Assembly: GCA_003670425.1 (NCBI GenBank)
Contig: QWRL01000004.1
Span: 1-37,853, forward strand
DNA length: 37,853 nt
From: Chloroflexota bacterium
GTDB taxonomy: Bacteria > Chloroflexota > Anaerolineae > Anaerolineales > UBA11657
Direction: 5' to 3'
In this document: piece after piece, positions 7,943 to 37,853 of the stretch
How the letters are laid out: each line of letters opens with the position of its first letter
Position numbering within the stretch: the stretch's first letter is position 1
Position numbers and translations under genes: made by a program
The notes under the pieces: generated by a model
Told to the model about the DNA's origin: nothing
Databases searched by the model: none
The model's input: the letters and a program-made list of their open reading frames with translations, nothing else

Positions 7943-7963
7943 TTTGTACAAATTGGAGTCGCA

Positions 7964-8974: not shown

Positions 8975-9004
8975 TCGCAGCGTATTTATTTACACGGGCT
9001 TGCT

Positions 9005-16308: not shown

Positions 16309-19305
16309 ATGTCATCCAGCCTGACTTTTCAAGAAGTGGTGATGGCGCTGGACCGCTTCTGGGCGCAGCGCGGCTGCCTCATTTGGCAGCCGTACAACCA
16401 TCAGGTGGGTGCCGGCACAATGAACCCGGCCACGGCGCTGCGCGTGCTGGGCCCCGAGCCGTGGAACGTGGCGTATGTGGAGCCATCCATCCGGCCCGAT
16501 GACGGGCGCTATGGCGAGAATCCCAACCGGCTGCAGCAGCACTTTCAATATCAAGTGATCCTTAAGCCGGATCCCGGCAATCCGCAAGAGCTGTATCTGG
16601 AGTCATTGCAAGCGCTGGGGTTGAACCTGGCCGCGCATGATGTGCGCTTTGTGGAGGACAACTGGGAGTCGCCGGCGCTGGGAGCGTGGGGCCTGGGCTG
16701 GGAGGTGTGGCTGGACGGGCAGGAGATCACGCAGTTCACTTACTTTCAGCAGGCCGGCGGGCTGGTGCTTGATCCGGTTGCAGTTGAGATTACTTACGGC
16801 TTGGAGCGCATTCTGATTGCGCTGCAGCGCGTGCGTGGTTTTCGCGAGATACGCTGGAATGCCGCCCTGAGCTATGCGGATGTAAACCTGCAATCCGAAC
16901 AGGAGTACAGCAAGTACTACTTTGAAGTGGCGGATGTTGAGCGCATGCGCGCACAGTTTGATTCTTATGAAAGCGAAGCCAAGGCGGTGCTGGCAGCCGG
17001 GCTGGTACTGCCGGCCTATGACAATGTGCTGCGCTGCTCGCATGCGTTCAATGTGCTGGATACGCGCGGCGCGGTGGGCGTCACCGAGCGCGCGCAGTTT
17101 TTTAAGCGCATGCGCAACCTGACGCGGCAGGTAGCGGAAGCGTGGCGCGCGCAGCGCGCAGAGCTGGGCCACCCGTTGCTGGTGGATGGCTCCGAGCCGG
17201 CAGCCCGGCCGGCCGCGCAGCTGCCGCTCGCAAAAGCGCCGGCCACCTTTTTGCTTGAGATTGGCACGGAGGAGCTGCCCGCTGCAGATGTGGACAGCGC
17301 GATCGCGCAGCTGCAATTGCTGCTGCCGCAACTGTTGCTGGCGGAACGGCTGGCGCATGGTGCGATTGTTGTGAACGGAACGCCGCGCCGCCTGGCGGTG
17401 AGCATTGCTGGGTTGCCGGCGCTGCAGCCGGATGCGGAGACGGTGGCGCGCGGGCCGGCGGTGAGCAATGCGTTTGATGCTGCGGGGCAGCCCACGCCGG
17501 CGGCGCAGGGTTTTGCGCGCGGCAAGGGCGTGGCGGTGGGTGCGCTGCAGCGGCGCAGCATGGACGGCGGCGAGTACGTGGTGGCGCTGGTGCGCGCCAC
17601 AGGCCAGCCGCTGGCTGTGGTGCTGGCAGAACTGGCGCCGCGCATCCTTGCAGCGCTTGAGTTTAAGAAGAGCATGCGCTGGCGGCCGGGGCGCACTGCG
17701 CCGGCGTTTTCCCGGCCGGTGCGCTGGCTTGCGGCAATGATTGATGCGCAGGCGCTGCCCTTTGAGTGGGGCGGCTTGCAAGCGGGCAGCACTTCGCGTG
17801 CGCTGCGCTCTGATGCGGCGCCGGGCGGTGAAGTGATTGAGATTGGCGCGGCCGACAGTTACAGCCAGAGCATGCGGGCGCACGGAATTATTCTTGAACA
17901 TGAAGCGCGCGCCCGCACAATCATGGAGCAGGCGCAGCAGCTGGCTGCAAAGGTGGACGGCACGATTGCGGCGGATGCCGGGCTGCTGGCCGAGGTTGCC
18001 AATCTGGTGGAGTGCCCGACCGCATTTTTGGGTTCGTTCGAGGAAGCGTATCTGGAGCTGCCGCAAGAAGTGCTGGTGTCTGTGATGAAGAAACATCAGC
18101 GCTACTTTCCGGTTTGGCGGGCGGGCCGGTTGCTGCCGTTTTTTGTGGGTGTGCGCAACGGAGATGCCACAAACCTGGCGCAGGTGGTGGAGGGCAACGA
18201 GCATGTGATTCGGGCGCGCTTTGCGGATGCCAGTTATTTTGTGCGCGATGATTTGCGCCACGACCTTGCCGGCTTTCGCAGCCGGCTTGCGCGGCTCACG
18301 TTTCATGAGCAGCTGGGCTCGATGCTGGACAAGAGCGCGCGCGTGGAAACAATTGTTGAGCGGCTGGCGCCGCTGCTGCAGCTCGTTAGTGAGCTGCCGG
18401 TTGCGCTGCGGGCTGCCCATCTTTGCAAGGCAGACCTGGCCAGCCGCATGGTGGTGGAGATGACGGCGCTGCAGGGCGTGATGGGGCGCGCGTACGCGTT
18501 GCGCGCGGGCGAGCCGCCCGCGGTGGCGCAGGCGATTGAGCAGCACTACTGGCCGCAGGCAGCTGGTGACCCACTGCCCGAATCAGCTGCGGCTGCAGCT
18601 GTGGCACTTGCAGACCGGCTGGATACGCTGTGCGGATTGTTTGCGCTCGGCCTGGTGCCCACCGGTTCGGCGGACCCGTTTGGCTTGCGGCGCGCTGCGC
18701 TGGGCGTGGTGCAGATTCTGCTGGGGCGCACGCAGGCACTGGATCTGCGCAGCGCGCTGACGGTTTGCGCCGCATGCCAGCCGCTGGCGGTTGGCGCTGC
18801 GGCGCAGCAGGACGCGCTGGCTTTCATTGCCGGCCGGTTGCGCGGCGTGCTGCTGGAAGCGGGCCACCGCCATGATGTGGTGGAGGCCGTGCTGGCAGCA
18901 AAGGCGCATGATCCTTACGCTGCGCAACAAGCGGCGGCACAGCTTTCTGCATGGCTGGTGCGCGCCGAGTGGGCGCCACTGCTGGAGGCGTTTGCGCGTT
19001 GTGCACGCATGACGCGAGAACTGGACGGCACAACGCCGGTGCTGCCGGCTGCGCTGCAGCACGCAGCCGAGCAGGATCTGTGGCGCGGCTTGCAGGCTGC
19101 GGAGGCCGCGTGTGCGCAGCACAGCAGCGTGGACGGGCTGCTGCGCGCGTTGCAGCCGCTGGCGCCATTGGTGGTGAAGTTTTTTGAGGATGTGCTCGTG
19201 ATGGATGAAGATGCGGCGGTTCGCAGCAACCGGCTGGGATTGCTGCAGCGTGTGGCAGCATTGGGCACCGGCATTGCAGATCTATCAAAGCTGGAGGGTT
19301 TTTAG
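16309..19305 (+). CDS. glyQS: Glycyl-tRNA synthetase, fused alpha-beta chain
   Basis: Alpha motifs ([39 protein letters not shown]) followed in frame by beta motifs ([38 protein letters not shown]). Confidence 0.95.
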
Positions 19306-23023: not shown

Positions 23024-23047
23024 TGTAGTTTGTGATAAACTACACAC
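23024..23047 (+). promoter_or_regulatory. Putative operator overlapping an extended -10 upstream of nuoA
   Basis: TTGTGATAAACTACACAC (TGTGA-N6-ACACA); inverted repeat TGTAGTTT-N5-AAACTACA; TG-A-TAAACT. Confidence 0.55.
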
Positions 23048-23094
23048 ACGTCCGCGCGCCCCAATCCCAAGCGTTTTTACCCCGGCTAAATCTC

Positions 23095-23466
23095 ATGCCA
23101 GTCCAGCAGCTTATCCAAGATTACTTGCCAGTTGGTATTTATTTTGCGGTTTCCGTTGGATTAGCGGGCCTGATTGCATTTTTGGGGCACATGCTTGGCC
23201 CGCGCCACGATACGCCGGAGAAACTCATGCCATACGAGTCCGGCATGACCCCGATTGGCGCGGCTGTGCGCCGGGTGCCGGTGCGCTATTACCTTGTGGC
23301 GGTGCTCTTCATTTTGTTTGATATTGAGGTGGTGTTCTTTCTGCCATGGGCGGTGGTGCTGCGCAAACTGGGCATGTTTGGGCTGCTTGAGATGCTGGTG
23401 TTTGTGGCGATATTGCTGGTGGGCTATGTGTACGTATGGAAGCGCGGTGCGCTGGAGTGGGAATAA
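23095..23466 (+). CDS. nuoA: NADH-quinone oxidoreductase subunit A
   Basis: PYESG, YYLVAVLFILFDIEVVFFLPWA and WKRGALEWE motifs. Confidence 0.93.
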   Translation: MPVQQLIQDYLPVGIYFAVSVGLAGLIAFLGHMLGPRHDTPEKLMPYESGMTPIGAAVRRVPVRYYLVAVLFILFDIEVVFFLPWAVVLRKLGMFGLLEMLVFVAILLVGYVYVWKRGALEWE

Positions 23467-23497
23467 AGTTTTTGCTGGAACCTGGAGCGTAATATAA

Positions 23498-23980
23498 ATG
23501 GGCGCTGAACAAAAGCTGGGCAACATGGGTGTGGTCACTACTTCACTGGAGACAGTGGTGAACTGGGGCCGCGCTGGCGCTATCTGGCCCATGTTATTCG
23601 GGCTGGCGTGTTGTGCAATGGAGATGATTGCGACGCAAGCCGGCACGTACGATGCCTCGCGCTTTGGCATGGAGCTGATGCGCGCCTCGCCGCGCCAGGC
23701 GGACTTGATGATTGTGGCCGGGCGCGTGACGCGCAAGATGGCACCGGTGCTGCGCCGGTTGTACGATCAAATGCCGGATCCCAAGTGGGTGATCAGCATG
23801 GGCGACTGCGCGTCCTGCAGCGGCGTGTTTAACAATTACGCATTGGTGCAGGGCGTGGACGAGGTGGTGCCTGTGGATGTTTACATTGCCGGCTGCCCGC
23901 CGCGGCCAGAGGCGCTGATTGACGGCTTCCTAAAACTGCACGAGAAAGTGCGCGGCGAGAAGCTGGCGCGCTGGGCTTAA
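23498..23980 (+). CDS. nuoB: NADH-quinone oxidoreductase subunit B
   Basis: [16 protein letters not shown] and GCPPRPE motifs. Confidence 0.96.
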
Positions 23981-23995
23981 GTTCAGGGTTTAACT

Positions 23996-24517
23996 GTGAG
24001 CCATTTAGAACGGACTGTTAGCGCGCTGCAAGTGCGCTTTCCACATGGCGTGCTGGCTGCGGTTGAATTTCGCGGGGACCTTACGCTCCAGATTGACAGC
24101 GCCAGCCTGCTGGCAGTCTGCCAATACCTGCGCGATGAGCCGACACTCGCCTACAACGTGCTGGTTGACATTGGCGCTGTGGATTATTCGCCGCAGGAGC
24201 CGCGCTTCGCACTCTTCTATATTGTATGTGCGCTGGTGCACAACACGCGCTTGCGCTTGAAGGTATTGCTGCCCGGCACCGAGCCGGTTGCGCCAAGCAT
24301 TACCGGCATCTGGCCGTCGGCCAACTGGCCCGAGCGCGAGGCCTTTGACATGATGGGCATTGGCTTTGACGGCCACCCGGATTTGCGCCGCATCTTGATG
24401 CCGGCGGACTGGGAGGGGCACCCGCACCGCAAGGACTATCCGCTGGGCTACGAAGAAGTGCAGTTCACATTTAACAAGCGCGAAATTGACGCGCGCAAAA
24501 AATATGCGACCAGTTAG
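23996..24517 (+). CDS. nuoC: NADH-quinone oxidoreductase subunit C
   Basis: ANWPEREAFDMMGI, GHPDLRRILMP and GHPHRKDYP motifs. Confidence 0.94.
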   Translation: MSHLERTVSALQVRFPHGVLAAVEFRGDLTLQIDSASLLAVCQYLRDEPTLAYNVLVDIGAVDYSPQEPRFALFYIVCALVHNTRLRLKVLLPGTEPVAPSITGIWPSANWPEREAFDMMGIGFDGHPDLRRILMPADWEGHPHRKDYPLGYEEVQFTFNKREIDARKKYATS

Positions 24518-24535
24518 CCGCACGGCAGCAACCAA

Positions 24536-25771
24536 ATGAGCCAGGTTCGCGAACTTGAAACCACGGTGGAAGAGCTGAAGCATCTCTTCAGCCCGCGCGC
24601 AGCCACCGGCGAGACCATGCTGCTAAATCTTGGGCCGCAGCATCCCAGCACGCATGGCGTGCTGCGCCTGTTGCTGGAGCTGGACGGCGAAGAGGTGGTG
24701 TCTTGCATTCCGGATGTGGGCTTCCTGCACACCGGCATTGAGAAGAACATGGAGGCCAAGACCTTCCTAAAGGCGCTGGTGATGACGGACCGCATGGACT
24801 ACCTCAACAACATGGGCAACAACCTGACGTATTGCCTGGCGATTGAGAAGCTGTGCGCAATTGAAGTGCCGGAGCGCGCGCAGGTGCTGCGTGTAATCTG
24901 CGCGGAGTTGCAGCGCATTGCCTCGCATCTGGTTTGGCTGGGCACCTCCGCGATTGACCTGAATGCCAGCAGCATCCTCATCTACTGCTTCCGCGATCGC
25001 GAGCGCATCATGGACTTGTTTGAGTTGATCGGCGGACAGCGCATGATGACGTCCTATATTCGCCCGGGTGGCGTGTGGCGCGATGTGCCTGCCGAGTTTC
25101 CCGAAGCGGTCGAGTCGTTCCTGGACTACCTTCCCAAAAAGCTGGATGACTACGAGCGCCTGCTGGACAAGAATCCGATTTATCTGGCGCGCACAATTGA
25201 CATTGGAATTGTGGATGGCGATGAGGCGCTGGCGTGGGGCATGACGGGCCCGGCGCTGCGCGGCTCGGGGGTGAACTTTGATGTGCGCCGCGCAATGCCA
25301 TATTCCGGCTACGAAAACTTTGAGTTTGATGTGCCGCTGGAGACCGGCTGCGATGTTTACGCGCGCTATCGCGTGCGCATGCGCGAGTTTCGCGAATCGA
25401 TCAAGATCATCCGGCAAGGACTGCGCCTGCTCAAGCCCGGTCCCTTCATTACATCTGACCGCAAGTTTGCGCCGCCGCCGCGCGCCGAGCTGGGCCGCAG
25501 TATGGAAGCGGTGATTCATCATTTCAAATACTGGACGGATGGCTTTCCTGCGCCGGACGGCGAAGTTTATGTGGCCACCGAGTCGCCGCGTGGCGAGCTG
25601 GGCTGCCTGCTGGCGGGCGATGGCGGACCGAATCCGCGCCGCGTGCATTTCCGCACGCCTTCGTTCAATACGCTGCAGGTGCTTTCTTGGCTGGGCAAAG
25701 GTTACTTGGTAGCTGACCTTGTTGCAATTATTGGCTCGATTGATATTGTGCTGGGCGATGTTGACCGCTAA
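24536..25771 (+). CDS. nuoD: NADH-quinone oxidoreductase subunit D
   Basis: GPQHPSTHGVLR, DRMDY, ESPRGE and DIVLGDVDR motifs. Confidence 0.96.
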   Translation: MSQVRELETTVEELKHLFSPRAATGETMLLNLGPQHPSTHGVLRLLLELDGEEVVSCIPDVGFLHTGIEKNMEAKTFLKALVMTDRMDYLNNMGNNLTYCLAIEKLCAIEVPERAQVLRVICAELQRIASHLVWLGTSAIDLNASSILIYCFRDRERIMDLFELIGGQRMMTSYIRPGGVWRDVPAEFPEAVESFLDYLPKKLDDYERLLDKNPIYLARTIDIGIVDGDEALAWGMTGPALRGSGVNFDVRRAMPYSGYENFEFDVPLETGCDVYARYRVRMREFRESIKIIRQGLRLLKPGPFITSDRKFAPPPRAELGRSMEAVIHHFKYWTDGFPAPDGEVYVATESPRGELGCLLAGDGGPNPRRVHFRTPSFNTLQVLSWLGKGYLVADLVAIIGSIDIVLGDVDR

Positions 25772-25805
25772 CAGCGCCACTTGAATTGAAAAGCGTATAG
25801 CGAAT

Positions 25806-26300
25806 ATGATGAGCCTGCAGCAAAAATACCCGGACGAAGTGGCGGCGATCCTGGCGCGCTACCCCGCTGACAACAAGCGCTCGGCGGTAATGCCGCTGCT
25901 GTACCTGGCGCAGCGCGCAGAAAATTATGTGCCGGCGGCTGCGCTGGATGAAGTGGCCGCGTTGTGCGAAATTGCGCCGACGCAGGTGGCCTCGATTGTG
26001 GGTTTTTACACGCTGTATTACGACAAGCCGGGCGGCCGGCACCGCATTCAAGTTTGCACAGACTTGCCGTGTGCCTTGCGCGGAGCTGACGATTTCGCTG
26101 CCAAACTGTGCGCGCATTTGGGCGTGGAGATGGGCGCCACCACCGCAGATGGCAAGGTGACAGTGGAGGCAGTGATGTGCCTCGCTGCCTGTGACCGCGC
26201 GCCAATGTTTCAGGTGCAGAACGGCGCTGGGCTTACGTTTCACGAAAACCAAACGCTGGAGAGCGTGAAGGCCCTAGTGGCCAAATTACAAGCGGAATAG
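25806..26300 (+). CDS. nuoE: NADH-quinone oxidoreductase subunit E
   Basis: CTDLPC...CLAAC 2Fe-2S ligands and FYTLY. Confidence 0.93.
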   Translation: MMSLQQKYPDEVAAILARYPADNKRSAVMPLLYLAQRAENYVPAAALDEVAALCEIAPTQVASIVGFYTLYYDKPGGRHRIQVCTDLPCALRGADDFAAKLCAHLGVEMGATTADGKVTVEAVMCLAACDRAPMFQVQNGAGLTFHENQTLESVKALVAKLQAE

Positions 26301-26314
26301 AAGGAGCATATACA

Positions 26315-27625
26315 GTGACAGAACATGTAGTCTTGCGCCACCGGCAGCCCGGCTTGGAGAATATCAACCAGCTGGCTGCGTATCAGGCCAGCGGCGGCTT
26401 TGAAGCGTACCGGACTGTTGTGACCAGCATGACCCCGCAAGCTGTGATTGATTTGATCAAGGCCAGCGGATTGCGCGGCCGCGGCGGTGCGGGTTTCCCC
26501 ACCGGCGTCAAGTGGTCATTCCTTAGCAACCGCTTTCCGCGCTATGTGGTGGCCAACTCTGATGAGTCCGAGCCCGGCACTTTTAAAGACCGCGAGATTA
26601 TGGAGCGCAACCCGTTCCAGTTTCTTGAGGGATTGATGATTGCGTCTTACGCCGCCCAAGCCAGCACCGCTTACAACTATTTGCGCGGCGAGTTTTGGGA
26701 GCTGGCTGCGCGCCTGGATGCGCAAATTGCAGAGCTGCATGCGGCCGGCCTGCTTGGCAAGAATGTGCTTGGCACGCAGTATTCACTGGCGGTGCACAAT
26801 CATCTGGGCGCGGGTGCGTACATTTGCGGCGAAGAGAGTGCGCTGCTCGAATCGATTGAGGGCAAGCTGGGGCAGCCGCGCCTCAAGCCGCCGTTCCCCG
26901 CCGACCGCGGCTTGTACGGCCAGCCCACTGTGGTGAACAACACCGAGACGCTGGCAAATATTCCGCCGATTGTGGCGCGCGGCGCGGAGTGGTACCGCAC
27001 ACTGGGCACAGAGAGCAGTCCCGGCACCAAGGTCATGTGCCTCTCCGGCCATGTTGCCAACGCCGGCAACTATGAAGTGCCGTTTGGGATTACCTTTCGT
27101 GAATTAATCTTTGGCCTGGCCGGCGGCATCCGGGGCGGGCGCACGCTCAAGGCTATTCTGCCAAGCGGGGCATCCGCCCCCATTCTGGCAGCCACCGACA
27201 AGGTGCTGGACACGCGCCTCACTTACGAGGATGTGGCCGCGCTGGGATCGCAGCTCGGTTCTGCGTCCATCATTCTCATGGACGAGACGGTGGACATGAG
27301 CTGGGTGGCGCTCAAGACCACGCACTTCTTCAAGCACGAGTCCTGCGGCAAGTGCACGCCGTGCCGCGAAGGCACCTATTGGATGACGCACATTCTGGAC
27401 CGCGTGCAGGCGGGCGGGGTGCAGGCCACGGACCTGGCTTTGTTGAGCGATGTGACGCAACAGATTGGCGGAAAGTGTTTGTGCCCGCTGGGAGATTTTG
27501 CGACGAGCGCTGTGGTCTCGAGCCTCAAGTTGTTTCCGGCTGACTACGAGCAGCACCTGATGGGGGCGGCTGCCGTGCCTGCCAAGCCCGCTGCGCGCGC
27601 CAAAGTGGCGCAGCCTGTAAGCTGA
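26315..27625 (+). CDS. nuoF: NADH-quinone oxidoreductase subunit F
   Basis: GLRGRGGAGFPTG, DESEPGTFKD, GAGAYICGEE and ESCGKCTPCREG...C motifs. Confidence 0.96.
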   Translation: MTEHVVLRHRQPGLENINQLAAYQASGGFEAYRTVVTSMTPQAVIDLIKASGLRGRGGAGFPTGVKWSFLSNRFPRYVVANSDESEPGTFKDREIMERNPFQFLEGLMIASYAAQASTAYNYLRGEFWELAARLDAQIAELHAAGLLGKNVLGTQYSLAVHNHLGAGAYICGEESALLESIEGKLGQPRLKPPFPADRGLYGQPTVVNNTETLANIPPIVARGAEWYRTLGTESSPGTKVMCLSGHVANAGNYEVPFGITFRELIFGLAGGIRGGRTLKAILPSGASAPILAATDKVLDTRLTYEDVAALGSQLGSASIILMDETVDMSWVALKTTHFFKHESCGKCTPCREGTYWMTHILDRVQAGGVQATDLALLSDVTQQIGGKCLCPLGDFATSAVVSSLKLFPADYEQHLMGAAAVPAKPAARAKVAQPVS

Positions 27626-27695
27626 CGCGCACTGCGCAAACTAATTCTGAAAGTAGAAACTATGACTGCGCATTTTCAAGACAGCATCAGCAGCC

Positions 27696-30218
27696 ATGCC
27701 TGAACCAGTTTCCTTCTTTGTGGATGGGCAGCCGGTAACGGCTGCGCCCGGCACGATTGTGGTGGATGCAGCCAAGACGGTGGGCAACGACATCCCCGTG
27801 TTTTGTTATCACCCCAAGCTGGATCCGGTGGGCATGTGCCGCATGTGCCTGGTGGAGATTGGCATGCCGCAGCGCGATCGCGCCACCGGCGCTGCCGTGC
27901 TGGATGAAGACGGCCAGCCCAAGATAGCGTGGCTGCCAAAATTGCAAACTGCATGCACGACTCCAGTGGCGGCCGGCATGCATGTGCGCACAACAACTGA
28001 TGCAGTAGAACGCGCGCGCAAAGATGTGGTGGAACTAATTCTTACTTCGCATCCGCTGGACTGCCCGGTATGCGACAAGGGCGGCGAGTGCCCGCTGCAG
28101 AATTTGACGATGCGCCACGGCCCCGGCAGCTCGCGCTTTGTGTTTGACGAGAAGATCAAGCTGGAGAAGCATGTGCCGCTTGGCGACCTGATTTATCTGG
28201 ATCGCGAGCGCTGCATTCAGTGCGCGCGCTGCACGCGCTTTCAGGAGGATATTGCCGGCGATCCGGTGATCGGCTTTGACCAGCGCGGCCGCAGCCTGCA
28301 GATTGTGACGCACTCCGATCCCGGCTTCGACAGCTATTTTTCCGGCAACACTACTGACATCTGCCCCGTGGGTGCGCTGACCACTGCAGATTTTCGCTTT
28401 GGTGCGCGCCCGTGGGAGCTTAAGCATTCCGATTCGATTTGTACGCATTGCCCCGTGGGCTGCAATCTGCATTTGAATACGCGCCGCTCCGGCGTGGCCG
28501 GCGACTTTGTAATCAAGCGTGTGATGCCGCGCCAGAACGAGCTGGTGAATGAAACCTGGATCTGTGACAAGGGCCGCTTTGGCCAGCACTTTGCCACCAG
28601 CATTGACCGCCTGACGGTGCCGCTGGTGCGGCGCGGCGGGCAGCTGGTGGAAGCCACGTGGGATGAGGCGCTGGCAGCAGTTGCAGCGCGCATGCAAGCA
28701 GCGCCGGGCGCGGTGGCTGCGCTGGCGGGCGAGCGCCTGTCCAATGAAGACTTGTTTGCGCTGCGGCGCTTGATGGAAGGCACCGGCGGGCGGGTGGCGC
28801 TGTGGCCGGGCGCCATGGGCGGCGGTGATGTTGTGCAGCAAGTGGGCGTTGGTGCAGGCACCGACATTGCGCGCGCGAGCGGCGACACCGCAATTGTGCT
28901 GGTGGCGACTGACCTGGAAGAAGAAGCGCCAGTATGGTGGCTGCGCGTGCGCCAGGCCGCCACAAAAGCCGGCGCCACGCTGGACAAAAGCCGCGCACAA
29001 TTGATTGTGCTTAACGGGCGCAGCACAACTGCGGACTCATGCGCAACACATGTGGTGCGCTATGCCTACGGCGCAGAAGCTGCCAGCGTGACGGCGCTGA
29101 CGGCAATGGCAGCGCAAGTGCGGGCGGGTCAGGCGCCGCCAGCGGGCGTGACGGCTGAAATCGCCGGCGCTGCGCAAGCACTGGCTGCCGCCAAAAATAT
29201 TATTGTGTTCTACGGACGCGATGGCTTGGGATACGCGGGCTCAACGGCCGTGGCGCAAGCGTGCGCAAACCTGCTGATTGCCACCGGCAACGGCGGCCGC
29301 CACAACAGCGGGCTGGTGCCAGTGTGGCCGCACAGCAATACGCAAGGTGCGTGGGACATGGGTGTGCGCCCCAGCGGCCTGGGCGCAGCCGAGTTTGCGG
29401 CGGATGCTGCGGTGGTGATTGCAGCCGGCGCCGATCCGTTGGGTGATGGCGAGCAGCTGCCGGGCTCCACGTTTGTGGTGGCGGTGGAGTTGTTTGCCAC
29501 GCTGACGGCGCAGCGCGCTGATGTGGTGCTGCCGGCGCGCGCGTTCACCGAGCGCGAGGGCACGCTCACCAGCGGCGAGCGCCGCGTGCAGCGCTACTAT
29601 CCGGCGCTGCCCGTGCGCGGCCAGGCGCGCGCAGACTGGCAAATCTTTTCGCAGATTGGCGAGCAGCTGGGGCTTGGCAAGAGTCCGGTTTCGGCAGCAG
29701 CCGTCATGTTGGAAATTTCCCGCAGCGTTGCGCACTATGCCGGCATCAACTATCAAGCGCTGGCCAATGTGGAAGCCCAATGGCCGGATGTGGGCGGCAG
29801 TGATTTGTACTACGGTGGCACGGCATTTCAAAACAACGGCGGGCTGGGTGTGCAAACACCGACGCTGATAGAGCGCGGGCAGGCGGTTGCGGCGCTGGCC
29901 GTGGCTGCCGCTGCTGCGCCACCGGAAGGACTGCGGGCCGTGCCGGTTGCGGTGCTGTATGACCGCAGCACAACATTTGTGCGGTCGGCTGTGATGGGGG
30001 CGCACATTCCCGCGCCGTATGTGGAGCTGAATGCTGCGGATGCAGCGCGCATGCAGGTGGCTGATGGTGCGCGCGTGCGCTTGCAGGTGCAAGGGCGCAG
30101 CGCAGAGCTGACGGCACGCGTAAACGGCCGCGCCCCGCTGGGCGTGGTGTTGGTGCCGCAAAGCTTGGGCGGGCTGGTGCTGCACAGCGCGCAGCCGGCA
30201 ACAGTGGAGCGGGCCTGA
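27696..30218 (+). CDS. nuoG: NADH-quinone oxidoreductase subunit G (with the extra N7-type cluster motif)
   Basis: FCYHP, CRMC, HPLDCPVCDKGGEC, CIQCARC, CPVGAL and CTHCPVGC...CDKGRF motifs. Confidence 0.95.
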   Translation: MPEPVSFFVDGQPVTAAPGTIVVDAAKTVGNDIPVFCYHPKLDPVGMCRMCLVEIGMPQRDRATGAAVLDEDGQPKIAWLPKLQTACTTPVAAGMHVRTTTDAVERARKDVVELILTSHPLDCPVCDKGGECPLQNLTMRHGPGSSRFVFDEKIKLEKHVPLGDLIYLDRERCIQCARCTRFQEDIAGDPVIGFDQRGRSLQIVTHSDPGFDSYFSGNTTDICPVGALTTADFRFGARPWELKHSDSICTHCPVGCNLHLNTRRSGVAGDFVIKRVMPRQNELVNETWICDKGRFGQHFATSIDRLTVPLVRRGGQLVEATWDEALAAVAARMQAAPGAVAALAGERLSNEDLFALRRLMEGTGGRVALWPGAMGGGDVVQQVGVGAGTDIARASGDTAIVLVATDLEEEAPVWWLRVRQAATKAGATLDKSRAQLIVLNGRSTTADSCATHVVRYAYGAEAASVTALTAMAAQVRAGQAPPAGVTAEIAGAAQALAAAKNIIVFYGRDGLGYAGSTAVAQACANLLIATGNGGRHNSGLVPVWPHSNTQGAWDMGVRPSGLGAAEFAADAAVVIAAGADPLGDGEQLPGSTFVVAVELFATLTAQRADVVLPARAFTEREGTLTSGERRVQRYYPALPVRGQARADWQIFSQIGEQLGLGKSPVSAAAVMLEISRSVAHYAGINYQALANVEAQWPDVGGSDLYYGGTAFQNNGGLGVQTPTLIERGQAVAALAVAAAAAPPEGLRAVPVAVLYDRSTTFVRSAVMGAHIPAPYVELNAADAARMQVADGARVRLQVQGRSAELTARVNGRAPLGVVLVPQSLGGLVLHSAQPATVERA

Positions 30219-30235
30219 CGGCCGGCGCAAATAAT

Positions 30236-31252
30236 ATGGCTTGGCAGGAAATTGGTTTCATCGCGCTCGAAGCAGCGATCAAGAGCATTCTGCTGGCGTT
30301 TGTGCTGCTGACGGCTTTTGCGTACATGACGTTTGCCGAACGCAAGGTTGCCGCGCTGATGCAGGTGCGCAGCGGCCCGAACCGCGTGGGTCCGTGGGGC
30401 TTGCTGCAGCCGGCTGCGGACGGTGTCAAGGCGCTCTTTAAAGAAGAGATTGTGCCGGCGGGCGCCGACCGCGTGCTGTTTATTGCTGCGCCGATATTGG
30501 TGGCAGTGCCGGCGCTGATCATCATGGCCGTGATTCCGCTTGGCCCGGATATGGTGCTCTTTGGGCGTCCGATGCGCCTCGCAATCACTGACATAAATGT
30601 CGGGACGCTGTATGTGCTTTCAGTGGCATCGGTGGCGGTGTATGGAATTGTGCTCGCCGGCTGGTCATCCGCCAACAAGTTTTCGATGATGGGCGGCATT
30701 CGGGCCACTGCCCAAATGGTGAGTTATGAGCTGGCGCTCGGCCTTTCTTTTGTGGGCCCGATCATGCTGGCGGGCTCATTGAGCCTGCGCGATATTGTGG
30801 TCGCGCAGCAGCAGTCGGTTTGGTATGTGGTGCTGCAGCCGCTGGGCGCGCTGCTGTTCTTTGTGGCTGCGCTGGCCGAGGTCAACCGCGCGCCGTTTGA
30901 CATGCCCGAAGCCGAGCAGGAGCTGACCGCCGGTTACTTTACCGAATACTCCGGCATGAAATTCTCGCTGTTCTTCATGGGCGAATACATCAAGATGATT
31001 GCGGTGAGTGCGCTGACTGCTACGCTGTTCTTCGGCGGTTATCTTGGGCCGATGGTGGACCAGTATCCGCTGCTGGGAATTGTGTATCTGGGGGGCAAGA
31101 CGCTGGCGTTCCTGTTCCTGATGATTTGGATCCGCCTGACGCTGCCGCGCATGCGTTACGACCAGTTGATGGCGTTTGGCTGGAAGCGCATGCTGCCGCT
31201 GGCGCTTGCCAATGTGGTGATAACCGCGGTGGCGCTTGTACTGGCGCAATAG
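30236..31252 (+). CDS. nuoH: NADH-quinone oxidoreductase subunit H
   Basis: ERKV, GPNRVGPWGLLQP, AQMVSYE and NRAPFDMPEAEQEL motifs. Confidence 0.96.
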   Translation: MAWQEIGFIALEAAIKSILLAFVLLTAFAYMTFAERKVAALMQVRSGPNRVGPWGLLQPAADGVKALFKEEIVPAGADRVLFIAAPILVAVPALIIMAVIPLGPDMVLFGRPMRLAITDINVGTLYVLSVASVAVYGIVLAGWSSANKFSMMGGIRATAQMVSYELALGLSFVGPIMLAGSLSLRDIVVAQQQSVWYVVLQPLGALLFFVAALAEVNRAPFDMPEAEQELTAGYFTEYSGMKFSLFFMGEYIKMIAVSALTATLFFGGYLGPMVDQYPLLGIVYLGGKTLAFLFLMIWIRLTLPRMRYDQLMAFGWKRMLPLALANVVITAVALVLAQ

Positions 31253-31260
31253 GGGGCTGA

Positions 31261-31758
31261 ATGTTTATTGAGATCCTTAAGGGCCTTGGCACAACGCTAA
31301 AGCATTCGTTCCAGCCGCGCATCACACTGCAATACCCGGAGGAGAAGCGCCCCGTTCGGCCGCGCTTCAAGGGCCGCCATGAGCTGAAGCGCTATGACAA
31401 CGGGCTGGAGAAATGCATCGGCTGCTCGCTGTGCGCTGCGGCGTGCCCGGCTGATGCAATTTTTGTGGAGGCTTCCGAGAACTCTGATGCAGAGCGTTAC
31501 TCGCCCGGCGAGCGCTACGCGCGCGTGTATGAAATCAACATGCTGCGCTGCATCTTTTGCGGCTTTTGCGAAGACGCCTGCCCCACTGAGGCAATTGTGA
31601 TGGAACACGAGTACGAGCTTTCGTTCTATGACCGGGCGAGCGCCATTTACACAAAGGACATGCTGCTGGTGCCGCCGGCGGGCGCACCGGACACGCCGCA
31701 GCAGGTGGCGCCGGGCAGCTTCAACCGTTCCATTCCGGACATGCATAACCCGGACTGA
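31261..31758 (+). CDS. nuoI: NADH-quinone oxidoreductase subunit I
   Basis: Two CxxCxxCxxxCP motifs and TLQYPEE. Confidence 0.96.
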
Positions 31759-31759
31759 C

Positions 31760-32302
31760 ATGACGGCTGCTCCCCTAATAATCTTTGCGGTTTTGGCGGC
31801 GGTGGCCGTGGCCTCCGGGCTGGCCATGATGCTCAGCCAGAACGCGGTGTACTCGGCATTGTTTTTGGTGATTAACTTTACGGTGGTTGCGGTGCTGTTT
31901 CTAATTCTTGGCGCGCCGTTCATTGCGATGCTGCAAATTACCGTGTATGCCGGCGCGATCATGGTGCTGTTTATATTTGTGATCATGCTGCTGGGCGGAG
32001 AGCGCCTGCCGGCGCCGCAGCAGCGGCTGCGCTGGCAGCAGCCGCTGGCGGTGGTGCTGGTGCTGGCGCTGCTGGCGCTGGCCGGCTACGTGTTCGCGCA
32101 GGGCGCTGCGCCGGCCGCAGTGCTGGCTGAACCGCAAGATTATGGCAGCCCGGCAGCGCTGGGCCTGCTGCTGTTCACAAAGTATTTGTTCCCGTTTGAA
32201 TTTACATCGTTGCTGCTGCTCGTTGCCATGATTGGCGTGGTGGTGCTGACGGCAGTGGAGGAGCGCCGGCGCCGTTTGCCGCGCGCGTCGCGCCGCACAT
32301 GA
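31760..32302 (+). CDS. nuoJ: NADH-quinone oxidoreductase subunit J
   Basis: [17 protein letters not shown] and [15 protein letters not shown] motifs. Confidence 0.94.
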
Positions 32303-32601
32303 TCCCGGTCAACTACTATCTGGCGCTTTCGGCGGTGTTGTTTGGCATTGGTGCGCTGGGCGTGCTGGTGCGCCGCAACGCGCTGGTGATTTTTATGTCG
32401 ATTGAATTGATGCTGAATGCGGCGAATGTGGCGTTTGTTGCGTTCTCGCGCCAGTTTGGCGAGCTTGACGGCCAGATCATGGTGCTGTTTGTGCTTACGG
32501 TTGCGGCGGCGGAAGTTGCCGTGGGCCTGGCGATGATTGTTGCCATCTTTCGTACGCGCGCGTCCATCAACGTGGACGAGCTCAATTTGCTGCGCGGCTA
32601 A
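32299..32601 (+). CDS. nuoK: NADH-quinone oxidoreductase subunit K
   Basis: [11 protein letters not shown] and [11 protein letters not shown] motifs. Confidence 0.96.
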
Positions 32602-32611
32602 GAAGCGGGCC

Positions 32612-34687
32612 ATGTTTGAACTTGCCCCGCTGGTGCTTGCGTTTCCGATTGCCGGCGTGCTGCTCAATCTGCTTTTTGGGCGCTACTTAAACGAGCGCTG
32701 GATCAGCATCATTGGCGTGGCGGCGGTGGGCGGCGCATTTGGGGTTGCCGTCCTGCAGGCGCTGGCGCTGGCCGGCAGCGGCTACCATGCGCATCTGGCG
32801 CTGCTGGCAAACTGGATCGAAGTGGGACAGCTGCAGGCACCGTGGCAGTTGCGCGTGGACACCCTGTCGGTGACCATGATGCTGCTGGTGACGGGCGTGG
32901 GCATGCTCATCCACATTTATGCCAGCGGCTACATGCATGGTGATGCGCGCTTTGCGCGTTTCTTCATCTACCTCAACCTTTTTATCACCGCCATGCTGGT
33001 GCTCGTGGGCGGGGACAACTACCTGATGCTGTTTGTGGGCTGGGAAGGCGTGGGCCTGTGCTCGTTCTTGTTGATTGGCTTTTGGTATGACGCCGGCGAG
33101 CCGAGCGCTTCGGCGCGCGTTGGCGGCGAGCCGCAGGCGGGTGCGGGCAATGCGCGTGCCGGGCGCAAGGCGTTCGTGGTCAACCGCATTGGCGACTTCG
33201 GCTTGCTGCTGGCAATGTTCATGATCTTTTGGCGGGTGGGCTCGCTGCAGTTTGATGCGGTGGCGGATTATTTTTCTGTGCAAGGGGCTGCAGCCGGCGG
33301 GCTGGCAACCGTCATCACGCTGCTGCTGCTGGTTGGGGTGTGCGGCAAGTCGGCACAGATTCCGCTGTTCGTCTGGCTGCCCGACGCGATGGCCGGCCCC
33401 ACTCCCGTTTCCGCGCTTATTCATGCAGCCACCATGGTCACAGCGGGCATCTATCTTGTGGCGCGCTCGGCGGTGATGTTTGAGCTGGCGCCCGTGTCGC
33501 AAATGGTGGTGGCGCTGGTGGGTGCGACGACGGCGTTCATGGCAGGCACGATTGCACTGGCGCAATATGACATCAAGCGCGTGCTGGCGTATTCAACCAT
33601 CAGCCAGCTGGGCTTCATGGTGGCGGCGGTGGGGCTGGGCGGCTATGTGGCCGGCATGTTCCATCTTCTGACGCACGCGTTCTTCAAGGCGCTGCTGTTT
33701 CTTTCGGCCGGTTCGGTTATTCATGGCGTTGAGCACGGTGCGCATGCCACGCATGCGCATGTGGATGTGCAGGATATGCGCGTGATGGGCGGCTTGAGAA
33801 GCAAGATGCCGGTGACGTTTTGGGTTTATCTAATCGGCGCGCTGGCGCTGGCTGGCGTGTTTCCCCTGGCGGGTTTTTGGTCCAAGGATGAGATTCTTGC
33901 GGATGCGTGGCACGTTGGCATGGTGGAGGGGCACTGGCATGGTGTGCTGGTGTACGTGCTGCTGGCGCTGGCGGCGCTTTCCACTGCGCTGTATATGACG
34001 CGCCAGATCATCCTGGTGTTCTTTGGTGCGCCCCGTTCTGAGGCTGCTGCGCATGCGCATGAAAGCGCGCCACTGATGACTGCACCGCTGGTGGTGCTGG
34101 CACTGCTGTCTGTGCTCGGTGGTTTGCTGAACCTGCCGGGCTGGCACGCGCTGGGTACGTGGCTGGAGCACACACACGAGTTCTTTCAAACCGGCGCGTT
34201 CAACGCGTTGGTGGCTGGCATTTCCACGCTGGTGGCGCTGGCCGGAATCGGGCTTGGCTACCGCGTTTATTTTCTGGCGCCACGCACCACCGCGGATGCT
34301 GCAGACGCGCTGCAGCCGGCGCTGGGGCCCATGTTTGGGTTTCTGCGCGGCAAGTGGTTTGTGGATGAGCTGTACGACGCTGTGATCGTGCGCCCGTTTG
34401 AGCGCGGTGCGCGCAGCCTGGCCTTTGCGCTGGATTGGAATTTCTGGCATGACGGCTTTCATAACTCAGTGCTGGCGGCGGGCTTTCGCATGCTGGCAGC
34501 ATTTCTTTCCGGACCGGTGGACAAAACCGTCATTGACCGCCTGTTCGACGCTCTGGCGGGCGCCGTCCGGGTGGTGGGCAGCCGCAACCTGCAGCGCTTG
34601 CAGACCGGTTACGTGCGCAACTACGCGTTGGGCGTGGTGCTCGGCGTAGTGGCCGTGATGGGTTACTTTGTGAGCCGGAGCATTTAG
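32612..34687 (+). CDS. nuoL: NADH-quinone oxidoreductase subunit L (691 aa, extended lateral helix)
   Basis: GWEGVG, NRIGD, KSAQIPL, WLPDAMAGPTPVSALIHAATMV, HAFFKA, SKDEIL and LQTG motifs. Confidence 0.95.
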   Translation: MFELAPLVLAFPIAGVLLNLLFGRYLNERWISIIGVAAVGGAFGVAVLQALALAGSGYHAHLALLANWIEVGQLQAPWQLRVDTLSVTMMLLVTGVGMLIHIYASGYMHGDARFARFFIYLNLFITAMLVLVGGDNYLMLFVGWEGVGLCSFLLIGFWYDAGEPSASARVGGEPQAGAGNARAGRKAFVVNRIGDFGLLLAMFMIFWRVGSLQFDAVADYFSVQGAAAGGLATVITLLLLVGVCGKSAQIPLFVWLPDAMAGPTPVSALIHAATMVTAGIYLVARSAVMFELAPVSQMVVALVGATTAFMAGTIALAQYDIKRVLAYSTISQLGFMVAAVGLGGYVAGMFHLLTHAFFKALLFLSAGSVIHGVEHGAHATHAHVDVQDMRVMGGLRSKMPVTFWVYLIGALALAGVFPLAGFWSKDEILADAWHVGMVEGHWHGVLVYVLLALAALSTALYMTRQIILVFFGAPRSEAAAHAHESAPLMTAPLVVLALLSVLGGLLNLPGWHALGTWLEHTHEFFQTGAFNALVAGISTLVALAGIGLGYRVYFLAPRTTADAADALQPALGPMFGFLRGKWFVDELYDAVIVRPFERGARSLAFALDWNFWHDGFHNSVLAAGFRMLAAFLSGPVDKTVIDRLFDALAGAVRVVGSRNLQRLQTGYVRNYALGVVLGVVAVMGYFVSRSI

Positions 34688-34726
34688 CCCCGCAACGCTG
34701 CATCAAAGCATGAGGCATTCTTCATA

Positions 34727-36247
34727 ATGGAAATTCTGAACTTTTTATCCTCCACCCTTTTGCTGGTGGTTTTCTTTCCGCTGCTGGGCGCAGTGGTGTT
34801 GCTGTTCATCAACCGCGAGCAAAAAGATCTCATTCGCTGGCTGGCGGTTGTGTTTTCGCTCGCCACCTTTGCGCTGTCGCTGGTGATGCTGGCGCAGTTT
34901 GATGCGCGTGTGCCCGGCGAACAGCTGACTGTGGTTGTGCCCTGGATTCAAGTGGGCTCCAGCTGGAACATCAATTTCCATTTGGGCCTCGATGGCATGA
35001 GCATCCTGCTGGTGCTGCTCACCACGCTGCTGACGCCGATCGCAATCTTCAGCTCATGGACCGCCATTCAAGAGCGCGTTAAAGAATACATGATCTTTTT
35101 CCTGATGCTCGAGACCGGCATGCTGGGCGTGTTCCTCTCGCTCGATCTGTTTTTGTTTTACATCTTTTGGGAATTTACGCTGGTGCCGATGTATTTTCTG
35201 ATTGGGATCTGGGGCGGCTCCAACCGTATTTATGCCGCGCTGAAATTCTTTCTTTATACGATGGCTGGATCCATCTTGATGCTGGTTGCCATCTTGTGGC
35301 TGGGTATCTACCAAGGCACATTTTCTGTGCCGGAGCTGGCGGCGCGCGGCGGCATCGATCCCGGCATGCAGCGCTGGCTGTTTCTGGCGTTCGCGGCAGC
35401 CTTTGCCATCAAGGTGCCCATGTGGCCGCTGCACTCCTGGCTGCCGGACGCGCATGTGGAGGCGCCCACAGCCGGCTCGGTGATTTTGGCTGGTGTGCTG
35501 TTAAAGCTCGGCACCTATGGCTTTCTGCGATTCAACCTGGCGCTCTTTCCTGATGCGTCCTTGTATTTTGCGCCGCTGATGGCAACCCTGGCCGTGATCG
35601 GCATTGTGTACGGGGCAATCGTGTCCTACCCGCAGCGCGATGTAAAGAAGCTGGTGGCGTACTCATCAGTGAGCCACTTGGGCTTTGTGATGCTGGGCTT
35701 GTTTGCGCTAAATACCCAGGGCATTCAAGGTGCTGTGCTGCAGATGGTTAATCACGGTCTTTCCACTGGTGCACTGTTCTTGCTTGTGGGCATGATCTAC
35801 GAACGCCGGCACACGCGCGACTTGGGTGAGTTCGGCGGTTTGTGGACGGGCATGCCCGTGTATGGCACGCTGATGTTGATCGTGGTGCTGTCTTCCATGG
35901 GCCTGCCGGGCCTGAACGGATTTGTGGGCGAGTTCACTATTCTGCTGGGTGCGTTTGGGTCGGAGGCGCTGGCTTCACCGGTTTACACAATTGTTGCGGC
36001 GTTTGGTGTAATTCTGGCGGCGATTTACTTGTTGTGGATGTTTCAGAAAATGTTTCTGGGCCAGATTACCAACCCCAAGAACGAGAATCTGCCTGACCTC
36101 AACTGGCGCGAAGTGCTGGTGCTGGTGCCTTTGCTGGTCTTGATTTTTTGGATTGGCTTGTACCCGCAGCCTTTCTTTAATTTGATCCAGTCCTCGGTGG
36201 GCGATCTTGCAAACTCGTTTAGTGCGGCCGGCATTGCCGCGCGCTAG
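34727..36247 (+). CDS. nuoM: NADH-quinone oxidoreductase subunit M
   Basis: FWEFTLVPMY, KFFLYT, WLPDAHVEAPT, LLKLGTYG, AYSSVSH and GFVGEF motifs. Confidence 0.96.
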   Translation: MEILNFLSSTLLLVVFFPLLGAVVLLFINREQKDLIRWLAVVFSLATFALSLVMLAQFDARVPGEQLTVVVPWIQVGSSWNINFHLGLDGMSILLVLLTTLLTPIAIFSSWTAIQERVKEYMIFFLMLETGMLGVFLSLDLFLFYIFWEFTLVPMYFLIGIWGGSNRIYAALKFFLYTMAGSILMLVAILWLGIYQGTFSVPELAARGGIDPGMQRWLFLAFAAAFAIKVPMWPLHSWLPDAHVEAPTAGSVILAGVLLKLGTYGFLRFNLALFPDASLYFAPLMATLAVIGIVYGAIVSYPQRDVKKLVAYSSVSHLGFVMLGLFALNTQGIQGAVLQMVNHGLSTGALFLLVGMIYERRHTRDLGEFGGLWTGMPVYGTLMLIVVLSSMGLPGLNGFVGEFTILLGAFGSEALASPVYTIVAAFGVILAAIYLLWMFQKMFLGQITNPKNENLPDLNWREVLVLVPLLVLIFWIGLYPQPFFNLIQSSVGDLANSFSAAGIAAR

Positions 36248-36306
36248 ATTGTTGCGGCAGCCTACAGTTTGGCAGTTGCGCCGCCTGCGCCAACGGATTT
36301 AGCAGC

Positions 36307-37758
36307 ATGACTTTTCCGGATTTGAATCTGGCAGCAGCAGTGCACCTGTTGTTCCTTGCAGGTTGGGCGAGTGCTTTGCTGCTGGTGGATCTGTGGATTC
36401 CCAAAACGCACAAGACTGTAACTGGCTGGCTGGCGTTTGCGGGACTTGCAATTGCGCTGGTGCTGGTCAGCGCGCAGCAGGGCTCGCGCCAGGCAGCTTT
36501 CGGCGGTACGCTTGCCACTGACGGCTTCTCCACGCTGATGAACTTCATCTTCATTGGCGCGGGCATGCTGTCTGTGTTGATGGCGCTCAACTACCTGCGC
36601 CAGCACGATCTTGAGCGCGGCGAGTTTTACCCGCTGCTGCTGTTTTCGATTGTGGGCATGATGGCCATGGGCATGGCAAAAGACCTGATCATCGTGTTTT
36701 TGTCGCTGGAGCTGTTGTCCATTCCGCTGTATGTGCTGGCAGGCTTTGGGCGCCCGCGCATTGAGTCGGAGGAAGCGGGCCTCAAGTATTTTCTGCTGGG
36801 GGCTTTTTCATCTGCGTTCCTGGTGTACGGCATTGCGCTGGTCTATGGCGCGACACAGGCCACCAGCTTTGCCGGCATCGGTGTTGCGCTGGATGCAGGG
36901 CGCGCGGGGTCGCCATTGTTGCTGGCAGGCGTGGGCCTGATCATGGTGGGCATGGGCTTCAAAGTGGCGGCTGTCCCCTTCCATATGTGGACGCCGGACG
37001 TGTATGACGGTGCGCCTTCGGTTGTGACGGCATTCATGTCGGTTGGCGCGAAGGCGGCCGGCTTTGCTGCCCTGGTGCGGGTGTTGTTTGACGCGCTGGC
37101 GCCGCTGGCTGCAGAGTGGGGTGTGGTGGTGGCCACGCTGGCTGCCTTGAGCATGGTGCTTGGCAACGTGGCTGCGATTGCGCAAACATCCATGAAGCGC
37201 ATGCTCGCATACTCCTCCATTGCGCATGCGGGCTATGTGGCCGTGGCCGCCCTGATTGATGCGCAGGGCGCCCAGTCAAACTTTTCGGCCGGTGCTGCGA
37301 TTTTCTATTTGGGGGCTTATGCCCTCACTAATCTGGGTACGTGGGCGGTGGTGCTGGCGGTTGAGAAACCGGAGCGCATGACCACGGATGTGGCAGACTA
37401 CGCTGGCCTCGGCCGCACCCAGCCCGCGCTGGCCGCAGCCATGACACTCTTTATGCTGTCGCTGACGGGGCTGCCGCCATCGATTGGGTTTGTGGCGAAG
37501 TTCTATGTGTTCCGGGCAGCACTGGAGGCGGGCTATACGTGGTTGGTGCTGCTGGGTGTGGTTACAGTTCTGATCTCTGCCTACTACTACTTGCGCGTGA
37601 TCGTAGTGATGTGGATGAAAGAAGGCTTGGGCGAGGCTCTTCTGCCGCGCGCGCTGAACTTCACCATCTGGTTTACCGCTGCCGGAACGCTCGTCTTTGG
37701 CATTGTGCCGGGCCCCTTAATGCGTTTCGTCGAAACCTCGGTGCGCGGAATTTTCTAA
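36307..37758 (+). CDS. nuoN: NADH-quinone oxidoreductase subunit N
   Basis: EAGLKYFLLG, FKVAAVPFHMWTPDVYDGAP, KRMLAYSSIAHAGY and GFVAKF motifs. Confidence 0.96.
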   Translation: MTFPDLNLAAAVHLLFLAGWASALLLVDLWIPKTHKTVTGWLAFAGLAIALVLVSAQQGSRQAAFGGTLATDGFSTLMNFIFIGAGMLSVLMALNYLRQHDLERGEFYPLLLFSIVGMMAMGMAKDLIIVFLSLELLSIPLYVLAGFGRPRIESEEAGLKYFLLGAFSSAFLVYGIALVYGATQATSFAGIGVALDAGRAGSPLLLAGVGLIMVGMGFKVAAVPFHMWTPDVYDGAPSVVTAFMSVGAKAAGFAALVRVLFDALAPLAAEWGVVVATLAALSMVLGNVAAIAQTSMKRMLAYSSIAHAGYVAVAALIDAQGAQSNFSAGAAIFYLGAYALTNLGTWAVVLAVEKPERMTTDVADYAGLGRTQPALAAAMTLFMLSLTGLPPSIGFVAKFYVFRAALEAGYTWLVLLGVVTVLISAYYYLRVIVVMWMKEGLGEALLPRALNFTIWFTAAGTLVFGIVPGPLMRFVETSVRGIF

Positions 37759-37787
37759 CAGGCTGCAGGTTTGGAGGAGTGTAATTG

Positions 37788-37820
37788 CGAGCCCGTCCGA
37801 GTGACGGGCTCGTCTTGTTT
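37788..37820 (+). terminator. Intrinsic terminator closing the nuo operon
   Basis: 10-bp stem CGAGCCCGTC / GACGGGCTCG with a 5-nt loop, followed by TCTTGTTT. Confidence 0.8.
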
Positions 37821-37853
37821 GAGGGTAAGCAAGCTGCGTTGTCTGATGATCAC

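Follow-up and report, generated by a model that had tools for sequence, protein, structure and literature searches.

The window analysed here, a stretch of 37,853 nucleotides, is positions 1–37,853 of contig QWRL01000004.1 (assembly GCA_003670425.1) of a freshwater Anaerolineales bacterium of the phylum Chloroflexota, known from a metagenome-assembled genome of 2.08 Mb that is 75% complete (hereafter G000). The last 15 kb of the window are filled by a complete nuoA–N operon on the + strand, in which Pfam searches identified 14 of 14 subunits of respiratory complex I in order. This report concerns the lateral helix of its NuoL subunit, which is extended by an in-frame tandem copy of its own first 29 residues, in an operon with a single nuoM. 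The features of the operon, in window coordinates, are as follows.

23032–32601, + strand: nuoA, B, C, D, E, F, G, H, I, J, and K, in the same operon as nuoL (Pfam Oxidored_q4, q6, Complex1_30kDa, 49kDa, 2Fe-2S_thioredx, Complex1_51K, NuoG domains, NADHdh, Fer4, Oxidored_q3, and q2).
32612–34687, + strand: nuoL, 691 amino acids from the ATG, stop included (PF00662 and PF00361; best solved relatives NuoL/Nqo12/ND5).
34355–34441, + strand: lateral helix unit 1, residues 582–610 (WFVDELY...ALDWN), the canonical first segment according to the alignment with Escherichia coli NuoL.
34442–34528, + strand: tandem copy of unit 1, residues 611–639 (FWHDGFHNS...GPVDKT), a net insertion of 29–30 residues (repeat profile; gap in six short orthologues and in E. 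coli).
34433–34465, + strand: junction motif between the repeats, D608-W-x-F-W612-H613-D614-x-x-H617-N/D (conservation in long forms).
34529–34609, + strand: lateral helix unit 2, residues 640–666 (VIDRLF...LQTG), which aligns with the canonical NuoL IDG...QTG segment.
34610–34684, + strand: anchor helix, transmembrane helix (TM) 16, residues 667–691 (AlphaFold2 helix 668–690).
34727–36247, + strand: nuoM, the sole copy in the operon, 506 amino acids (PF00361 and PF01059).
36307–37758, + strand: nuoN, 483 amino acids (PF00361; orthologues come after nuoM in related loci).
37787–37823, + strand: terminator-like hairpin of 11 pairs, eight of them G-C (37787–37813), followed by a T-rich tail (sequence read).

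The operon agrees with those of the canonical complex I enzymes of E. coli (3RKO/7Z84) and Thermus thermophilus (4HE8) in its set of 14 genes and in their order, and key residues of NuoM are kept (E149, K229, K260, and E402 map to E144, K234, K265, and E407 of E. coli NuoM). NuoL has the Proton_antipo_N and Proton_antipo_M domains, the lateral helix, and the TM16 anchor of canonical Nuo/NDH-1, and the core of its AlphaFold2 model fits E. coli NuoL up to residues 555–558 (Z ~51, root-mean-square deviation 1.7–1.9 Å). A TTG at 32537 is also open as an alternative nuoL start. A Gly/Ala/Pro-rich loop after the GFWYD motif (residues 161–175; window 33092–33136) was modelled with a predicted local distance difference test score (pLDDT) below 50 and leaves a gap of ~14 residues when solved NuoL chains are aligned to it. 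An earlier examination of this DNA, made from the letters and predicted frames alone and called here the sequence-only reading, had described the order L-M-N followed by a terminator and a full NuoEFG module; both descriptions hold, the former with the hairpin at 37787–37813 and the latter with the Pfam assignments of nuoE, F, and G within the operon.

The departure from the canonical plan lies in the length of the lateral helix. The span from W582 of the WFVDELY motif to G666 of the QTG preceding TM16 is 85 residues (nucleotides 34355–34609), whereas the equivalent stretch of E. coli K-12 NuoL (W539 to G589, from the alignment) is 51 residues long and that of T. thermophilus ~54, as read from the alignment. 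Six orthologous NuoL proteins of the same order that lack the insert have spans of 54–55 residues. The window protein is thus well above the ~51–56 residues of the three-module, canonical Nuo/NDH-1 size, and the contrast drawn by the sequence-only reading (85 residues versus roughly 50–56) was correct; alignment against single-M and canonical NuoL gives a net insertion of 29–30 residues. The phmmer alignments to solved NuoL chains split in two at the insert, with residues 531–554 of the T. thermophilus protein aligning twice to the window NuoL. Among 150 representatives of 50%-identity clusters nearest the window NuoL, the motif rule could measure 82 and not the other 68, so the share of long helices at large is rough: 50 had spans of 53–56 residues, 22 of 80–82, eight of 84–85, one of 70, and one of 92.

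The first 29 residues of the lateral helix are present twice, in tandem and in frame, and the second copy makes up the excess. When span residues 1–27 were scored against 30–56 in a repeat profile of 84 distinct sequences, the score was 31.3, compared with a mean of -29.0 (standard deviation 8.8) for column shuffles (z 6.8), and none of 3,000 shuffles reached it. In the 65 sequences of span 84, offset 29 was the sole positive one among offsets 20–39 (35.1; all others ≤ -9.8). The consensus pair is WWVDELYWAVIINPYIALARFLADVVD and FWHDWFHDSVIAGGFRGLARFLAGPVD. The 29-residue internal repeat proposed by the sequence-only reading is therefore real, and the residue pairs on which it was based (V10/V39, F15/F44, A19/A48, L22/L51, and D27/D56) are all present.

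The operon has one nuoM, as had also been noted from the sequence, and the second divergent nuoM between nuoL and nuoN that is the hallmark of the 2M type of complex I is absent from the window. Among 40 relatives, the NuoL loci were of two kinds, hereafter type A (the window's kind, 20 loci) and type B (20 loci). The helix was long in 17 of the type A loci and short in three. Seventeen type A loci had the order L-M-N, two stopped after nuoM at a contig end, and in the remaining one (L018; G014:C455, 1–1272), the 1.27 kb past nuoL holds small unrelated open reading frames (ORFs) and no nuoM, the operon being interrupted or rearranged there. Fifteen type B loci had the order L-M1-M2-N, and the other five were cut by contig ends or by the ends of the examined stretch. 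A scan of one genome per species with the long-helix alignment found at least 562 confirmed stretches. The best 80 of these at least 562 loci comprised 68 with L-M-N and 12 cut by contig ends, and five additional type A loci were all L-M-N. Two nuoM genes were found in none of the 105 type A loci examined, 90 of which show an intact L-M-N.

An assembly artefact, in the form of a collapsed tandem nuoM at 34687–34727 and 36247–36307 (for which the sequence-only reading had proposed a check) or of a spurious 87-base duplication, deserves almost no credence. The same gene order and insert recur in other assemblies, including single-contig genomes such as G025. Three public DNA runs, each from a different study, and one RNA-library run gave contigs that cover the helix with no indel reported, and independent contigs bridge both the first junction (X1, X4, X9, and X15) and the second (X1 and X15) with no joint reported. 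The run data consist of contigs, so depth gives no copy number, and it was the bridging and the lack of joints that were used; contigs from the RNA library do not prove transcription.

The long helix is widespread in the order and confined to it in our samples. The helix profile matched 332 of 401 sampled genomes of the order, with the best E-values forming two groups, and a hand count of full-length matches at E ≤ 1e-32 placed the long helix in about 255 of the 401 good genomes. In a phylum-wide sample of 301 genomes, all 21 matches at E ≤ 1e-35 fell within the window's order, and at this threshold there was no long-helix match in the 272 sampled genomes outside it. In this order, the long helix is the rule, and it is accompanied by a single nuoM. 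The insert itself is under purifying selection. The D, W, H, and H of the motif DWxFWHDxxHD were invariant in 18 of 18 aligned long helices, exceeding the conservation of most of the helix, and D608, W612, H613, D614, and H617 were near-invariant across 86 long forms. Towards its middle, the insert is rich in Ala, Gly, and Ser but variable, and the 18 aligned helices contain no conserved Gly or Pro for a turn.

The insert has also been lost, probably at least three times. In trees from which the helix was masked, the six short-helix NuoL proteins occurred at four places within the long-helix clade, and a long-helix representative (P0008) branched first. The well-supported branches force at least four changes of helix state among 49 rows, and the approximately unbiased test rejected a tree that groups the six short forms (log-likelihood lower by 117.8, p 0.0003). 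The most economical history for these trees would be one gain followed by at least three precise losses; alternatively, the helix segment may have been exchanged between lineages. Gene content is unchanged where the insert was lost.

A second cluster in the same genome does have the two divergent nuoM genes of the 2M type. It occupies positions 1–6232 of contig C48 (locus L132) and comprises nuoL (718 amino acids, span 82), nuoM1, nuoM2, and the start of nuoN, the contig being cut at both ends. Its M1 and M2 are 36% identical, and M2 has a Leu at the position of the TM7 lysine of NuoM (K229 in the window, K234 in E. coli). In G002, a genome of the same genus, the 2M cluster reads A-H-J-K-L-M1-M2-N; it holds only membrane subunits and must therefore draw the others from genes elsewhere. 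This arrangement matches that of the Chloroflexota 2M clusters described in the parts of PMC7117926 and PMC8004040 available to us, which are without nuoE, F, and G and have nuoB, C, D, and I elsewhere. The window operon has all of these genes. In the window's family (G008:C31, G004:C52, and G006:C78), a single contig carries both the 14-gene operon and the 2M cluster, ~30 kb from each other and in the same orientation.

These two kinds of operon bear on the suggestion, made in the sequence-only reading, that the long helix is a relic left after a second nuoM was lost. The likeness to 2M complexes on which this was based stands in part: 2M enzymes are found in Chloroflexota, and the NuoL helix insert of 26 residues quoted for them (PMC9040806, in excerpt) is, like the 29–30 residues here, about one module width and close in size, which is what favours a former 2M operon minus nuoM2. 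Beyond length, the likeness fails, because the window has no second nuoM and the duplicated unit differs. The helix of the C48 type has no offset-29 repeat; it has a weak offset-26 repeat from the IDG unit (score 5.3, the sole positive offset), and inspection by eye of the 80-residue class of cluster representatives finds an FD..VVDG.VNG unit twice, in agreement with the quoted 26-residue insert. The type A and 2M-type NuoL proteins are, moreover, separate clades in the helix-masked tree. Comparison at the sequence level shows that type A duplicates unit 1 and the 2M type unit 2, and that the type A insert arose independently of the 2M insert. The different duplicated unit and the separate clades thus leave the relic of a lost nuoM2 unsupported, and the near-invariance of five insert residues and the lack of two nuoM genes in any of the clade's 105 examined loci speak against it as well; we regard a relic or a neutral leftover as very improbable. 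The representative P0011 (736 amino acids) has a type A insert (DWDFFHDLFHD, span 85) yet groups with 2M-type NuoL on a long branch of the helix-masked tree, and it may be recombinant or a misassembly.

The sequence-only reading had also proposed that a fourth antiporter subunit is encoded elsewhere in the genome, and candidates do exist. G000 has eight distinct PF00361 genes, three in the window, four on C48, and one orphan on contig C117 (locus L131, 4776–6173, minus strand). The orphan encodes a very divergent antiporter-like protein of 466 amino acids (PF00361, 50.6 bits) without, by eye, the TM7 and TM8 lysines, and is flanked by two ORFs of 373 and 408 amino acids with no Pfam match. Of 41 genomes searched, 40 have it, short-helix genomes among them, and in G027 (99% complete), which gave no NuoL match, it was the sole PF00361 match. 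As its distribution does not follow the insert, the orphan was rejected as the fourth module. Two genomes with the long helix, G068 (95% complete, five contigs) and G107 (94% complete), have only L, M, and N and the orphan, so that any fourth module there would be a second copy of an existing subunit. Three further genomes were considered as long-form genomes without a 2M cluster and rejected: G332 and G393 both have the cluster, and G244 (99% complete) has a lone long NuoL-like gene (719-amino-acid frame; G244:C46:184946–185893) with no M1, M2, or N matches elsewhere, which may be a remnant of a 2M cluster. Supply of the module in trans, whether from the 2M cluster (M1 or M2) or from the orphan, would be helped by the occurrence of both operon types in most relatives, by the presence of both sources in G000, and by the need of the membrane-only cluster of G002 to borrow subunits. 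It is opposed by G068 and G107, which have the long form without the 2M cluster; by the short-form genomes, which carry that cluster too; and by the missing lysines of the orphan and its presence in short-form genomes and the NuoL-less G027. We therefore consider supply in trans quite improbable: the earlier proposal was right that further antiporter-like genes exist in the genome, but neither source tracks the insert.

The geometry of the extended helix was examined in an AlphaFold2 model based on a 108-sequence alignment (mean pLDDT 89.3). It was predicted as one unbroken helix of 83 residues (581–663) followed by TM16 (668–690), with pLDDT values of 80–89 over residues 581–630 and 67–74 over 631–660. 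The 50 best structure matches included no long-helix structure, and in none of them did the aligned range of the model extend beyond residue 656, TM16 lying outside every one. P595 of the window NuoL aligns with E. coli P552, which sits between NuoL and NuoM in 3RKO according to a part of PMC3274701; the distance from the L/M boundary to TM16 would thus be ~40 residues in short forms and ~70 in long forms. By arithmetic, 29 residues make ~8 turns, or ~43 Å at 1.5 Å per residue, and at 100 degrees per residue, they turn the helical face by merely 20 degrees. The width of an antiporter-like module is ~40 Å. The copy repeats the hydrophobic-moment pattern of unit 1 (~100–200 and then ~290 degrees), and its junction with unit 2 has the phase seen between units 1 and 2 in short forms; the profile has no single constant face along the helix and so is no proof alone of a straight surface helix. 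Outside the insert, none of 164 NuoL columns near-invariant in the 86 long forms was changed in at least three of the six short forms. Unit 1, unit 2, and TM16 are thus alike in long and short forms, and both ends of the helix probably dock as in canonical enzymes.

The reading that we prefer, tentatively and at somewhat less than even chances, is a membrane arm of the form L-M-M-N, in which the single NuoM would be used in two neighbouring positions, as the sequence-only reading had also suggested, and the helix would act as a ruler, giving a five-proton complex I from 14 genes. The copy would probably extend the lateral helix as a straight amphipathic helix that keeps the features of its source segment, adding ~43 Å, about the width of one antiporter-like module, and the simplest filling of that distance would be a fourth module. 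Because G068 and G107 need no extra gene, this fourth module would come from the one NuoM, present in two copies, so that L-M-M-N could be built from three genes. The lateral helix would then set the number of M copies, and deletion of the repeat would return a lineage to L-M-N, with one proton fewer per cycle.

NuoM and NuoN were searched for columns that are near-invariant in long-helix loci and changed in at least three of six short-helix loci. There were four such columns among 193 in NuoM and none among 80 in NuoN. The short-form NuoM proteins are not more divergent overall, with identities of 0.65–0.69 to the window NuoM, the lowest long-form value being 0.64. Three of the four positions (F124, F142, and V153) are near the TM5 glutamate E149, which F142 and V153 flank, and the fourth, M391, belongs to the MGLPG stretch and precedes E402 by 11 residues. 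We take this stretch for the TM12 break. According to the portion of PMC7419157 at hand, the TM12 break has a loop that touches the TM5 Glu of the adjacent antiporter-like subunit, and the lateral helix links the TM7 helices; the NuoM signal, at TM5 and near the TM12 break, thus falls at contacts between modules and not at contacts with the helix, and we count it in favour of the L-M-M-N arm.

Nearly as likely as the L-M-M-N arm is an ordinary 1:1:1 complex of L, M, and N in which the extra 29 residues fold back or bulge beside NuoM as a surface hairpin or kinked stretch, and in which the insert would serve as an added clamp, as a lipid or metal site on its H-D-x-x-H-D face, or as a docking point for another respiratory complex. 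This is the simplest stoichiometry, and it agrees with the repeated loss of the insert without change of any other gene; the conserved His and Asp at i and i+4 could form a binding site; and NuoM is the sole co-varying subunit, as a contact between the insert and M would predict. Small insertions were also tolerated at two sites of the E. coli helix, as reported in the section of PMC3274701 seen, although at P552, 6–7 extra residues cut pumping efficiency to 22–27% (PMC3274701, same section). A fold-back is further opposed by the lack of a conserved Gly or Pro for the turn, by the AlphaFold2 prediction, which has no break in the helix, and by the amphipathic pattern of the copy, which matches that of its source segment, a straight one in solved structures. 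The co-varying NuoM positions, moreover, are at TM5 and near the TM12 break and not at TM7, where the helix touches the modules (PMC7419157, in part).

Alternatively, a 1:1:1 complex might have a straight, longer helix whose TM16 docks one module nearer the quinone end, beside NuoN and NuoK/J/A, clamping more of the arm. This would fit the predicted straight helix of 83 residues and needs no extra subunit (G068 and G107). On the other hand, TM16 and unit 2 are alike in long and derived short forms, so one TM16 sequence would have to fit two unlike sites, and none of the 80 NuoN columns co-varies with helix length. We consider this arrangement unlikely.

Several points weigh against the L-M-M-N arm with a reused NuoM. 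To our knowledge, no complex I has one gene product in two places of the membrane arm. The extra module has its own gene in the four-module enzymes that the available parts of PMC7117926, PMC8004040, and PMC9040806 describe, and the 36% identity of M1 and M2 suggests that two positions normally need specialised subunits. A contact between two identical M subunits would need something to stop further growth of the chain. At least three losses without a change in gene content fit a dispensable ornament equally well, and E. coli tolerates insertions of 6–7 residues at G532 and P564 of the lateral helix (PMC3274701, in the part seen). The co-variation signal is weak, coming from six sequences in four lineages with conservative substitutions, and the AlphaFold2 model is of a single chain and is blind to partners.

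Helix inserts in clusters not credited with an extra pump subunit have been described elsewhere. Two further clusters of 'Ca. Manganitrophaceae', Complex_I_1 and Complex_I_2, have NuoL helix insertions, and the excerpt of Yu et al. 2022 (PMC9040806) credits them with no extra pumping subunits; like the window operon, they thus combine a helix insert with no credited extra pump subunit. These clusters, from the phylum Nitrospirota, are likened here by description and not by insert sequence, and the excerpt does not deal with the distribution of the inserts, their repeated loss, or co-variation. According to the same excerpt, the authors left unsettled whether the enzymes are already able to take an extra subunit or are in transition. 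The general puzzle is thus already in print there (PMC9040806, in part). The insertion mutants of E. coli NuoL (Belevich et al. 2011, PMC3274701, in part) carry an insertion in the same helix; they differ in having 6–7 flexible, laboratory-made residues instead of a natural, conserved, 29-residue helical copy. Within our own samples, a NuoL with an E. coli-like GWGFD motif and a span of 75 residues is encoded in G013 (locus L143, G013:C195; ORF at locus 7007–9016, minus strand), followed by one nuoM and nuoN. By eye, it contains a 24-residue tandem copy of unit 1, with 9 of 24 residues identical. This repeat represents a third, independent route to a longer helix beside a single M, and we count the recurrence of a long lateral helix with one nuoM in favour of the helix as a ruler.

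A limited literature search, which did not cover the text of Chadwick et al. 2018 on 2M complex I, found no publication linking NuoL to Anaerolineae or Anaerolineales and no solved 2M structure. With that text outside the scope, the Anaerolineales insert, its separate origin, spread, and losses, and the co-variation of NuoM were likewise not found in the literature searched. Upstream of the operon, the window contains a fused glycyl-tRNA synthetase, with the alpha and beta parts in one ORF of 998 amino acids (16309–19305), followed by dnaG and rpoD directly upstream of nuoA–N.

In genomes, a longer NuoL helix is used to mark a fourth proton-pump module and, with it, a higher H+/e- ratio; this marker is present, without a fourth gene, in roughly two thirds of the sampled genomes of the order. 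The marker may be unreliable, and a long helix taken by itself would then be no sign of extra pumping capacity. Alternatively, one gene product may occupy two positions; if true, this would introduce a new assembly principle, and the bioenergetic models of these organisms would have to change. If the helix is indeed a ruler, the length of a single helix would tune the pumping stoichiometry in evolution, without any gene being gained or lost. The role of the lateral helix has been in question since the piston model was set aside, and the natural pairs of long and short orthologues, with at least three independent losses, would offer a ready comparison for that role.

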